Below, in pieces: positions 7,346 to 36,033 of a DNA stretch of 64,000 nucleotides (the first letter of the stretch is position 1; every line of letters begins with the position of its first letter). The DNA lies in the NCBI GenBank assembly GCA_038087875.1, contig CM075991.1, forward strand, positions 1,922,001 through 1,986,000, in the 5' to 3' direction. The notes beneath the pieces are model-generated. The model saw nothing but the letters and a program-made list of their open reading frames with translations, was not told the origin of the DNA and made no database searches. The translations under genes were made by a program, and so were the position numbers. Origin of the DNA: Malacoraja senta. Taxonomy: Eukaryota.

Positions 7346-7857
7346 ACACCTCCTACCGTTACCTTATCGAGAATAGAGTAGACCCAAGCACAGAGAGTGC
7401 ACTGGTTGGTGAAAGTTAAAACTCAGAAGGGCTTCTACTTGAATCGGAGTCGTGAAAACAGGTCGCAGGGTCCAATCCAAAAGTACACAGGCAGAGGAAT
7501 TGAGGACCAGTCAATTTTAAGGTTATATTGGACAAGCCTGGGGTGGCCAAGAATGAGGGGAAGTTTAGGAGAATCCATGAGTTGGATCATTTCAAAATGT
7601 TTAGCTCTAATTAAGTGCTTCCGTGGAATGGTTTGATTTTCTCTGACCCCAGAGGGCTGCCATCTAAAGCCGTGACTATTATGGGTTTATCAAGAGGAGT
7701 TTAAGGAATCCTCAATTTCTTTGCCTGAGAAATGTCGGAAATATTTCCAGCAGACCCCAGAATCACTGCAAGTCACGAGAGTCTGGCTGAGATCTCCCCC
7801 AGGAGATACTTGCCTTCAACAAGGTGCAGTTTGTACTGAGGTTGGGAGAATTAATCA

Positions 7858-9825
7858 GTGCAAAAGGGAGGCTTATCTAGAGTGCCGGGGAGTCTAGAGC
7901 ACATGGGATTGGTGACCCAGCACACCAGAGAAGCCAGGGAGAACAAGGGAGACCTGACAGTGGTCTGGCTTGACCTGACCAATGCCTACGGCTCCATCCC
8001 ACACAAGCTGATGCAGACAGTCATGGCCAAGCACCATGTGCCGGGCCAAGTGGCAGATCTCATCCTGGACTATTACAACCAGTTCAGCATGAGAGTCTCA
8101 TCAGGGTCAGTAACATCAGAGTGGCACAGACTGGAAGTAGAGATCAACACAGGCTGTACCATCTCTGTGATCCTTTATGCCTTGGCGATGAACATGATCG
8201 TCAAGTCTGCTGAGCCAGAGTGCCGGGGCCCTCGGACCAAGTCAGGAGTGCGCCAATCATGAATCAGAGCCTTCATGGATGACCTGACTGTCACCACTGA
8301 GTCAGTGCCAGGAGGCAGGTGGATCCTGCAGGGGTTGGAGAAACTGATTGGATGGGCAAGGATGTGGTTTAAGCCAGGGAAATCAAGGTGATTGGTGCTG
8401 ATTACGGTCAAAGTCATGGGTAGGTTCTGCTTCAGCATCGAACCAATCCTAATTGTCTCCGAAAAGCCAGGGAAGAGTCTTGGCAAGGTGTTTATCAGCA
8501 GCCTGAAGGATACAGCATCAGTCCAGGCAACCTGTCAGTAGTTGGAGAGCTGGTTGAGAGCCGTGGACCGGTCAGGGCTTCCAGGCAAGTTCAAGGCATG
8601 GATTTACCAGCATGGTATCTTGCCAAGGATACTCTGGCCACTGCTTGTTTACGAAGTCCCAATATCCATCAAAGAGAGATTGGAGAGGAAAGTCAGCAGC
8701 TTTTTCATGAGGTGGCTGGGACTGCCCAGGAGCCTTAGCAGCATCGCCCTTTACGGAAATAACACCAAGCTCCAGCTGCCCCTGAAGTCCCTGGGGGAGG
8801 AGTTTAAGGTGACTCGGGCCAGAGTGGTGATGCTGTACAGGGACTCCAGCGATCCCAAGGTGGCTCAGGCAGGGATGGAGGTGAAAACTGGGAGGAAGCG
8901 GAGAGCCTGCGAAGCCGTGCTGGAAGGAGAGTCTCGGATAGGCTACAGAGTCCTGGTGGGAACAGTGACTCGGGGAAGAGCTGGTGTAGGAATCTTCCCA
9001 ACTCCCCAGTTTAACAAGGCCAAGGGGAAGGAGAGCCACGGGCTGGTCCAGGAGGAAGTGAGGGCAGCGGTGAAGGAGGAGAGGTCTAGCAGAGTGGTTG
9101 GCTAGAGGCAGCAGGGAGCCTGGACAAGGTGGGAGCAGGCCATGGACCGAAAAGTCACATGGACTGAGCTCTGGCAGGCTAAACCACAGTGCATCAAGTT
9201 CTTGGTCCAGGCAGTGTACGATATCTTGCCCAACCCATCGAACCTCTTCATCTGGGGCAAAGCGGAATCTCCGGATTGCCCGCAATGCCCAGTCAACAGA
9301 ACGTTGGAACACACCCTGAGCTGCTGCCCAAAGGCACTTGGGCAGGGCTGGTACACCTGGCGCCACGACCAGGTTCTTAAACCCATTGTAGAGGTCATCA
9401 GCGTGGGAATCAGCAGCTGCAGATGAGCACGCCCCACCACCCAGATGATCACCTTCGTGAAGGCCGGAGTGCAGCTGCCAAGAACCACAGTCGTCAGGAA
9501 TCCGTCATGAATCCTGCCGACTGCGCAGGACTGGCAGCTTTCTGTAGACCTGGTGAAACAGCTGAAGTTCGCACAGCACATTGCCACGACCACCCTGAGG
9601 CCAGACATCCACCTGGTCTCAGAGGCGCGGAGAAGGCCTCGAGATGGCTCTGGATCAGGAGAGGAGGTCCATGAGGAGGAGCGAATGCCACCTGAACATA
9701 AGTCGTGGTCTGAGCAACCACGGCTGGGTCGCCTGGGTGAGGGTGAAAGACCCGAAACACCCAATGACCCCCATGTTACATCACTGATGATGTGTTCAGG
9801 AGCATCAAGAGATGTATTTTTTATC
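7858..9825 (+). mobile_element. HERO-like (R2 superfamily, RLE) non-LTR retrotransposon, 5'-truncated, degenerate
   Basis: QKGG...EH, WLDLTNAYGSIPH, GCTIS, FMDD RT motifs; CPQC...H...C knuckle; WRHDQVL and TTLRPDI RLE motifs; C-terminal AEKASRWLW; then 3' UTR. Confidence 0.85.
9732..9797 (+). ncRNA. Permuted hammerhead/K-turn motif, cleavage-site segment deleted
   Basis: GGGTG/GAAACACCC stem III, AAT-GA/TGA kink-turn pattern, ACATCA-CTGATGA. Homologous to 35851-35925. Confidence 0.6.
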
Positions 9826-35089: not shown

Positions 35090-36033
35090 ATCACCTAGTG
35101 GTCATTCCCAAGAATACCAAATGTCAATTGTAGTGAAAAACCTTAGGGATTGTAACATCCAGTCCTACTAATCAATCTGAACATCTGGATGAAACCAGTG
35201 ACCGCTGCGAAAGGGCAGCTGACAACCAGGAAAAGACCTCGTGACAGCCTGGAGAGACTGCTGACCGGAGGGAATAGACCTCACCGAGGCTGGCATGGGC
35301 TAGCTCCTCATGCCCGCAGGATCCATCGCTAATCAGCATTGTGGATCCACCCTTATATTGCTACGGAAGGAATCGACTATGAATAAGACAACTAGCACAG
35401 CAATTGACAGAGCAGCAGCACCGGCAGGACATAAGCTACGAAGCTGCATCTGTGGCTGGGAAAAGATAACATCAGAGAAGGGTCTCAAGATCCACCAGGG
35501 CAGAAAAAAGTGCCTGAGAGAGCTTGGTGAGGGGCCTCGCATTGACCATTACTTTCTAAGAGGTAGGCCAAATCAGTCGAGTGAAGCCCAGTGGCAGGTT
35601 AACCACCACAGTCCACAGGGTATCAGCACCCCAGGCGAAGCTCAACCAAGGACTGTCCCACCAACGGACACGAGTCCGGGGCCCAGCAAGCCACAGTCAG
35701 CGTTAGAGAGGAAGATGGAAGGAAAAAAGCCGAATGGAGCAGTCACTGGCTGTGGCTGAAAAGAAAAGATGCTGTCTGGGCTGCCACGTGACCATCTAGA
35801 GGCTAACCATAAGACACACACCCAGGTCTGATCACCCTATGTTGGGCCTGCCTCGACTGAGGGTGTCTTGTGATAAAAGACCGAAACACCCAGTGATGTT
35901 GAGGTACACAACTGAAGATGTGTCTGATTGGTAGCAAAATCAGCTAGTGGTCATCCCCAAGAATACCGGGTGTCAGTTGTGGTGAAAAACCTTAGAGATT
36001 GTAACATCCAGTCCTACTAATCAATAATCAATA
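35090..36033 (+). mobile_element. Internally deleted (non-autonomous) HERO-like element with 87-bp terminal direct repeats
   Basis: N-terminal zinc finger (CICG...GLKIHQGRKKC) fused to the C-terminal HWLWLKRK. 3' UTR homologous to 9690-9800. 35090-35176 is repeated at 35939-36025. Confidence 0.8.
35851..35925 (+). ncRNA. Candidate non-circularly permuted hammerhead ribozyme with kink-turn
   Basis: GGGTGT-C/ACACCC, TTGTG/CACAA, CTGAAGA, GAAA, GTCT/AGAC; C/D-type K-turn closed by CCTCGAC/GTTGAGG. Confidence 0.72.

Follow-up and report, generated by a model that had tools for sequence, protein, structure and literature searches.

Does a hammerhead core whose strands stand in a non-circular order, in the 3′ untranslated region (UTR) of a retrotransposon, represent a real RNA structure, and if so how is it wired and what might it do for the element that carries it? 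The question is raised by a locus in the window, a 64,000-nt stretch of the Malacoraja senta genome (GCA_038087875.1, contig CM075991.1, positions 1,922,001 to 1,986,000), which had been predicted to hold such a core with cleavage after C35867. All the letters on which that prediction was built are present: GGGTGT-C at 35861-35867, TTGTG at 35868-35872, GAAA at 35883-35886, ACACCC at 35886-35891, CACAA at 35907-35911, CTGAAGA at 35912-35918, and a K-turn pattern with its CCTCGAC/GTTGAGG helix. The non-circular order, the predicted site and the location in a HERO-like 3′ UTR are supported. The motif had been drawn too short, as its real start at 35812 lies approximately 40 nt 5′ of the one proposed. 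It escapes standard searches, with Rfam at gathering threshold giving no match in the 64,000-nt window. Hammerhead numbering and K-turn nomenclature follow the standard conventions.

The window copy has decayed and belongs to a non-autonomous deletion derivative, 849 nt long, of a HERO-like retrotransposon (Table 1). The insertion is 936 nt long and consists of one 849-nt unit with 87 nt of its own tail in front, so that the element is a more-than-unit-length tandem repeat, a feature missed by the original prediction. Its relatives are reverse transcriptase (RT) proteins of approximately 1165 aa, the middle of which is missing from the 849-nt unit, and Pfam gave no match to the remnant ORF of the window. 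A search of the genome returned 1013 first-look candidates; 40 of them were scored and all were 95-96% identical except the window copy itself. The same genome contains an autonomous family with mostly intact 1181-aa frames (among the best 40 hits) that also carries the motif in its 3′ UTR. Many copies (L009, L018-L021, L023, L040-L042, L047-L049 and others) share one 5′ end, at 35348, and identical flanks, and were therefore amplified within a larger repeat rather than inserted independently.

Table 1. Features of the HERO-derived insertion, its candidate ribozyme motif and a second, broken copy in the window
Feature	Position	Strand	Basis and remarks
Whole insertion	35090..36025	+	1.1 units, non-autonomous HERO-derived element; boundaries by BLAST against 30 genomic copies and 60 loci
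Tail of upstream unit	35090..35176	+	Direct repeat of 35939-36025, 91% identical, period 849 nt
HERO ORF, N-terminal remnant	35310..35759	+	35316-35732 matches P0001 residues 24-162 at 66%; RT/endonuclease deleted at ~35732
HERO ORF, last codons	35729..35785	+	P0001 residues 1148-1166, 84%; out of frame after internal deletion
Outer helix Pa, 5′ strand	35812..35818	+	Pairs with 35919-35925
Hairpin Pb of four-way junction	35819..35844	+	Decayed here; palindrome TGATCA at 35829-35834 in loop
True stem II, 10.x strand (G10.1 = 35845)	35845..35849	+	Pairs with 35878-35882
K-turn: NC helix 5′ strand; U-G-A strand	35851-35857; 35858-35860	+	Sequence, covariation
Stem III 5′ strand, C17 (35867), stem I strand (35868-35872)	35861..35872	+	Predicted cut 35867/35868
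Stem II 11.x strand, G12-A13-A14-A15.1 (35883-35886), stem III 3′ strand	35878..35891	+	Family conservation
K-turn 3-nt bulge, G-A-U, NC helix 3′ strand	35892..35904	+	Sequence and families
Stem I 2.x strand, CUGAAGA core (35912-35918), Pa 3′ strand (35919-35925)	35907..35925	+	Sequence and families
Second motif copy, decayed	9680..9806	+	Model score 61.6 bits and alignment; cleavage site and stem I 5′ strand deleted
Second broken HERO-like element, other lineage	7855-9636	+	tblastn 40% to P0001 residues 470-1067; upstream of 9680..9806

The HERO-like proteins have a single ORF of approximately 1100-1200 aa with an RT, a C-terminal cysteine-histidine motif and a PD-x-E nuclease motif; RVT_1 is matched in the relatives, and the protein alignment contains the motifs C-x2-C-x7-H-x4-C and RPD...EL. 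The text of PMC2790886 describes the HERO-clade motif as C-X2-C-X8-H-X4-C and reports an upstream motif as absent, whereas the proteins here carry an N-terminal Cys/His cluster. One relative, P0096, when compared by eye, matches the RT segment given for HERO-1_BF in PMC5678591 (supplement file 6) almost letter for letter and aligns with P0001 at 44-58% identity, which indirectly makes it likely that the element belongs to the HERO clade. In the P0096 gene model a C-terminal piece stands at the start and recurs at the end, as a read-through of a tandem array would give. The remnant ORF at 35310-35759 is 64-81% identical to its best relatives (P0001-P0010), of which the named ones are from bony fish, and the intact HERO-like family of the host genome is 66% identical to P0001. 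The element may possibly have been transferred horizontally. Viral contigs gave no confirmed relative by full-length protein alignment and one weak match by C-terminal alignment.

The motif is a real, deeply conserved RNA structure. To see how widely it occurs we used a protein-selected set of 79 metagenome loci (from the best 80 of 322 matches) and 3 GTDB loci, chosen by C-terminal protein alignment only. A loose S-G-C descriptor found the motif in 51 of these 82 3′ UTRs, and in none of 82 reverse complements, 73 coding stretches or 820 dinucleotide shuffles. A covariance model trained on 39 non-redundant sequences (14 of 53 were left out as more than 85% alike or incomplete) matched 62 of the 70 protein-selected loci scanned. 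By descriptor or model the motif is found in 74 of the 82 loci, the metagenome part again being drawn from the best 80 of 322; the eight loci without it comprise four with less than 60 nt of UTR, two that end inside or interrupt the motif and two that lack it altogether. The GTDB loci (L146, L147, L148) are HERO pieces filed under bacterial genomes, two with the motif, and we do not accept them as bacterial copies; for L148 animal contamination is likely because it contains one ORF of at least 120 aa in 9.4 kb.

Covariation of stems I and III and of the K-turn helix across families, proposed at the outset as a check, was found. Pairing holds in 92-97% of cells for stem III and for pairs 1-3 of stem I, with two-sided changes, in alignments whose training rows had been required by the descriptor to form these stems; the GAAA that is invariant in the 39 families was likewise required by the descriptor. 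In a MAFFT alignment not fitted to the structure, 299 cells show two-sided changes compared with 112 in shuffles, and the score drops sharply when the register is slid. All such counts are to be read with the caveat that the families are related and that the genomic loci include duplicates and units of a single array.

The order of predicted site, GAAA and CUGANGA has already been published as type SGC (PMC10085705) and is therefore not new in itself; the actual wiring does differ from the published one. The original prediction had formed stem II between AGAC and the GTCT that follows CUGANGA, but 4 bp with this strand are possible in 0 of 39 families at offset 0 and in 7 of 39 at offsets 0-4. 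Instead, the bases before GAAA find a partner for a 4-bp stem II 19-22 nt upstream of U16.1 in 35 of 39 families, against a cross-sequence control of 24% that is inflated by related families. When position 10.1 is placed from Pa and Pb alone, stem II forms at offset 0 in 26 of 29 families and in none at ±1. A partner is present in 33 of the 37 rows of the protein tree, on which stem II pairs 2-4 show 8, 6 and 7 joint two-sided changes; in these 33 rows pair 1 (10.1-11.1) is G-C in 30 and G-U in three, with G10.1 kept in 33 of 33, and C11.1 is found in 61 of 70 model hits. Global alignments give a weak result for stem II, with just 54% paired cells (MAFFT) or 46-59% (model alignment), which we attribute to misregistered columns, and the anchored counts are preferred.

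The strand after A9 belongs to a different helix, Pa, which begins at offset 0 and is 7 bp or longer in 29 of 39 families (cross-sequence control 13%) and has changes on both sides in 7 of 7 pairs in the MAFFT alignment. The gap between Pa and stem II is filled end to end by hairpin Pb in all 27 families in which both were found. In 0 of 39 families at offset 0 is A9 joined to a stem II strand directly or via 1-2 nt, the strand in question lying in Pa instead. Because the partner of stem II is upstream, and the strand after CUGANGA is in a separate conserved helix, the topology is unlike both the arrangement first drawn and type SGC. The 5′ to 3′ order supported by covariation is Pa 5′ strand, Pb, stem II 10.x strand, NC helix, K-turn, stem III, site and stem I, followed by the linker, stem II 11.x strand, GAAA, stem III′, K-turn, NC′, stem I′, CUGANGA and Pa 3′ strand. 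Covariation likewise supports a perfect four-way junction of Pa and Pb with stem II and the core, inserted between A9 and G10.1. We have little doubt about the structure as described. Single-strand folding recovers Pa, the NC helix and stem III, the pseudoknots being beyond such folding, and gives z-scores of -2.75, -2.26 and -1.24, so that folding energy alone is weak evidence.

The K-turn that had been predicted to continue stem III was confirmed in 28 of 39 families, with tandem G.A and A.G pairs and a bulge that is 3 nt every time even though 2 or 4 nt were allowed. It is absent or altered in the remaining 11; in L095, L115 and near relatives it is lost and stem III is linked to the NC helix by a short direct connection. 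A box C/D K-turn has U.U as its third pair and binds L7Ae/15.5K. The window copy does have this U.U pair; 35897 is C in about half of its family, however, and the third pair varies across families, so the label is not general. In the window the NC helix, which covaries, is separated by 1 nt from the 10.x strand on its 5′ side and by 2 nt from the 2.x strand on its 3′ side. From the text of PMC10085705 we infer that it is the counterpart of the interaction helix between stems I and II in type SGC. Because the NC helix occupies this position, the motif can be understood as a circularly permuted type-SGC hammerhead whose ends would have been joined via the K-turn and which would have been reopened between A9 and G10.1.

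Six versions of a palindromic hexamer form the apex of Pb in 36 of the 57 non-redundant hits, the rate with a shuffled centre being 11%; the other 21 have no palindrome. The versions have been swapped at least six times on the tree, by paired changes. As the central bases of the hexamer cannot pair inside one loop, a kissing contact between two RNAs is plausible and the loop may be a dimer signal.

In the window copy stem II and the junction hairpin are both broken, which was missed when the motif was first described. A35880 is private to this copy, the position being G in 61 of 65 aligned family rows (duplicates included), as are three changes at 35839-35842. The true stem II is calculated at -0.3 kcal/mol here and -7.5 in L026, and the corresponding values for Pb are -1.2 and -13.0 kcal/mol. 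The window copy is probably impaired.

The organisation of genomic copies shows how the motif relates to reverse transcription. Copies longer than one unit are arranged head to tail with one ribozyme motif per unit. In the 849-nt family about a dozen of 60 loci (duplicates included) exceed one unit and two cross the upstream site; L061 consists of two full units and 55 nt. Autonomous units lie head to tail approximately 3.95 kb apart, and one array contains parts of at least four. The 3′ flanks of autonomous copies end at +205 to +209 past the site, without a tail, in 10 of 11 cases, the other continuing into the next unit. At the upstream side we examined 20 autonomous flanks from the 40 best hits, of which 18 extend beyond the unit boundary, 16 extend past the predicted upstream cut and 13 fill all 630 nt examined; the visible 5′ ends are at +328 (twice), +78, +11, -88, -112 and -163. 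From the fixed 3′ ends and the runs through the site it follows that reverse transcription begins within a continuous template and passes over the site. No pile-up of 5′ ends at the predicted site was seen among the 60 loci of the 849-nt family or the 20 autonomous flanks, as a circular template predicts and as an RNA that is never cut predicts equally. Assembled contigs of public sequencing runs, most sharing few sequence words and of guessed RNA status, gave no pile of ends. All 16 autonomous regions shown are seamless at the predicted site.

The unit junction has a single length in 10 distinct loci, and template jumping at the unit boundary was for this reason judged unlikely. By eye there was no clear target-site duplication. 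Among the metagenome loci the ORF restarts behind the 3′ UTR in 12 of the 34 that could be tested, in contigs that may be collapsed repeats. In two further contigs (L140:4980-5106 and L141:168-294) the motif is approximately 1.6 kb from the ORF, downstream in one and upstream in the other, which points to tandem units. The two copies starting at +328 (L162, L180) have different flanks and begin shortly before the ORF; this start is possibly a transcript start or a preferred stop of reverse transcription.

The insertion pattern would be explained most simply by a ligated unit circle. A more-than-unit genomic copy would be read through and the RNA cut once per unit. Four helices (Pa, II, NC and III) would bridge the two products and keep their ends together, with the NC helix acting as the interaction helix between stems I and II and being bent back from stem III by the K-turn. 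Ends held in this way could be joined by self-ligation or by RtcB to form a unit circle, within which the HERO protein would always prime reverse transcription from one internal position, 160-210 nt beyond the site. Reverse transcription rolling round the circle would then yield insertions arranged head to tail, all with the same 3′ end but with 5′ ends at scattered positions. Circles of this kind have been proposed for Penelope elements, and RtcB-ligated circles shown for retrozyme RNAs, in the texts of PMC4209133 and PMC7229834. Taken as a whole, the reading in which a hammerhead ribozyme with new wiring is kept in the 3′ UTR of HERO-clade non-LTR retrotransposons that are copied from circles as proposed is on balance the probable one, and for the covalent circle as template we lean towards acceptance.

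An active ribozyme wired as described could also operate with no covalent circle. R2-type enzymes are capable of template jumping, and the template might be an uncut read-through multimer, or cut RNA held clamped while the RT jumps the nick, with cleavage serving 5′ processing, translation or copy-number control. Uncut templates would fit the lack of 5′ ends at the site, and the 13-nt insertion at or adjoining the predicted site in L045 (matching window 35864-35867), a single case, is what imprecise jumping or repair could leave. According to the text of PMC11167929, the hammerhead of one Penelope element was dispensable for insertion in vitro and unprocessed RNA was the main substrate. Linear multimers could not lengthen arrays, however, yet most intact copies exceed one unit and one array reaches at least four, and the seamless site of the autonomous regions also speaks against this explanation. 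We regard this explanation as unlikely, though worth keeping in view.

Whether the RNA cuts at all has to be judged from the letters that the families keep and those they exchange. N17 is never G in the 22 readable of 24 hits outside the descriptor picks, being C, U or A, and the triplets at the site in 70 model hits include GUC (22), GUU (21) and GUA (19). All four bases occur at N7. CUGANGA is intact in 59 of the 70 hits, of which 39 are training rows selected for the core; the others comprise five U3 variants, three with other changes and three in which it is absent. In place of C3-G8, three related loci have U3-A8 and two have U3.G8. A U3-A8 core covariation is also reported for Penelope hammerheads in the text of PMC4209133, as is an unpaired base at the 5′ end of stem II. 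As the exclusion of G from N17, the fixed G10.1 and the U3-A8 swap are hammerhead-specific patterns, they argue for catalysis. The motif is very likely a hammerhead of new topology, and we predict with good confidence that intact families are catalytically active.

A conserved structure that does not cut, and serves as a folded recognition element for the HERO protein resembling or descended from a hammerhead, would be in keeping with the capture of the post-CUGANGA strand in Pa, and with the long insertions, all of which were reverse-transcribed across the site, so that the template was intact there. Such an element would not be expected to keep a replacement stem II, with its G10.1-C11.1 pair, in exact register, and catalytic-core rules such as those at N17, N7 and U3-A8 have no obvious reason in a binding site, which makes this explanation improbable. 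That the motif is an ordinary type SGC with stem II formed by the post-CUGANGA strand, and the upstream pairings an inhibitory alternative fold, is very hard to credit: AGAC/GTCT with one G-C pair is possible in the window (-2.9 kcal/mol) and four base pairs at some offset in the same seven families, but none of the 39 forms it at offset 0, 9 of 52 sequences cannot form a single pair at offsets 0-3, and the window pairing depends on the private A35880 while the competing Pa is stronger (-8.0) and covaries.

If the HERO motif, a candidate ribozyme, does cut, then the published rule of an uninterruptible CUGANGA block (Eckert et al., PMC10085705, as given in its text) is broken, and non-circularly permuted hammerheads exist in animal genomes, not just in environmental RNA, and so in accessible hosts for study. 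The K-turn would offer a structural answer to the question, left open in the text of the same paper, of an interaction helix that joins stem III directly. The insertion pattern suggests a circular template and internal priming in a LINE clade, a route that has until now been proposed for Penelope elements and retrozymes; copying from an RNA circle would be an unexpected spreading mode for such jumping genes, and the route bears on the growth of tandem retroelement arrays and on RNA-templated gene-insertion tools. The fullest version of this proposal could fall either way: HERO elements would be protein-coding R2-group LINEs that spread via a ribozyme-made RNA circle of approximately 4 kb and rolling-circle target-primed reverse transcription, with a K-turn possibly tuned by host L7Ae-family proteins, a dimerising loop and a further hammerhead topology.

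The closest known ribozymes are those of type SGC (HRIMA-1 and variants), which according to the text of Eckert et al. (2023, PMC10085705) are validated in vitro and absent from genomes of known organisms. Mapped from the text and legends of that paper, both systems have the order of site, GAAA and CUGANGA, a short linker between stems I and II and a doubly pseudoknotted core, and the NC helix would correspond to the fourth helix of type SGC, which links stems I and II on their far sides. Type SGC was built on the assumption, stated in the text, that CUGANGA and its flanking stem strands can be interrupted by at most 1-2 nt, so that block C (stem I strand, CUGANGA, stem II strand) is unbroken; in the HERO motif this block is split, with the 10.x strand coming first, a Pa/Pb junction follows A9, and a K-turn lies between stem III and the fourth helix. 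No earlier example of a helix junction between A9 and G10.1 was found in the text consulted from PMC3088659, PMC13725137, PMC10162972 and PMC10085705, and the text of Forgia et al. (2023) has nothing on inserted helices. Neither a hammerhead form opened between A9 and G10.1, nor any link of HERO to a ribozyme, tandem organisation or circular intermediate, was found in the open-access literature searched by full text, including PMC7650587, PMC4640811, PMC2790886, PMC9004415 and bioRxiv 10.64898/2026.07.22.740005; subscription journals and Repbase Reports may contain an earlier description, as may bioRxiv supplements and the alignments of Eckert et al.

Compared with the HERO clade of RLE non-LTR retrotransposons, the relatives have the same ORF and domain plan and the window element lacks the RT and nuclease. 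With Penelope-like elements and animal non-LTR retrozymes, as described in the texts of PMC4209133, PMC7229834, PMC11167929 and bioRxiv 10.64898/2026.07.22.740005, the HERO elements share head-to-tail, more-than-unit copies with a hammerhead in the repeated part and short non-autonomous derivatives, and also the proposal of a circle with internal initiation and more-than-unit reverse transcription. Penelope-like elements combine a telomerase-like RT and a GIY-YIG nuclease with circularly permuted, often dimeric type I ribozymes, whereas HERO here combines an R2-group RT and a restriction-like nuclease with a non-circularly permuted ribozyme candidate. The LINE ribozymes described at 5′ ends (HDV-like in R2 and L1Tc, twister variants in Schistosoma) tie self-cleaving RNA to non-LTR retrotransposition, as is predicted for HERO. 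Those ribozymes, as reported, release the 5′ end of a linear RNA, whereas the HERO motif sits between the ORF and the start of reverse transcription and must therefore be uncut or re-joined in the template.
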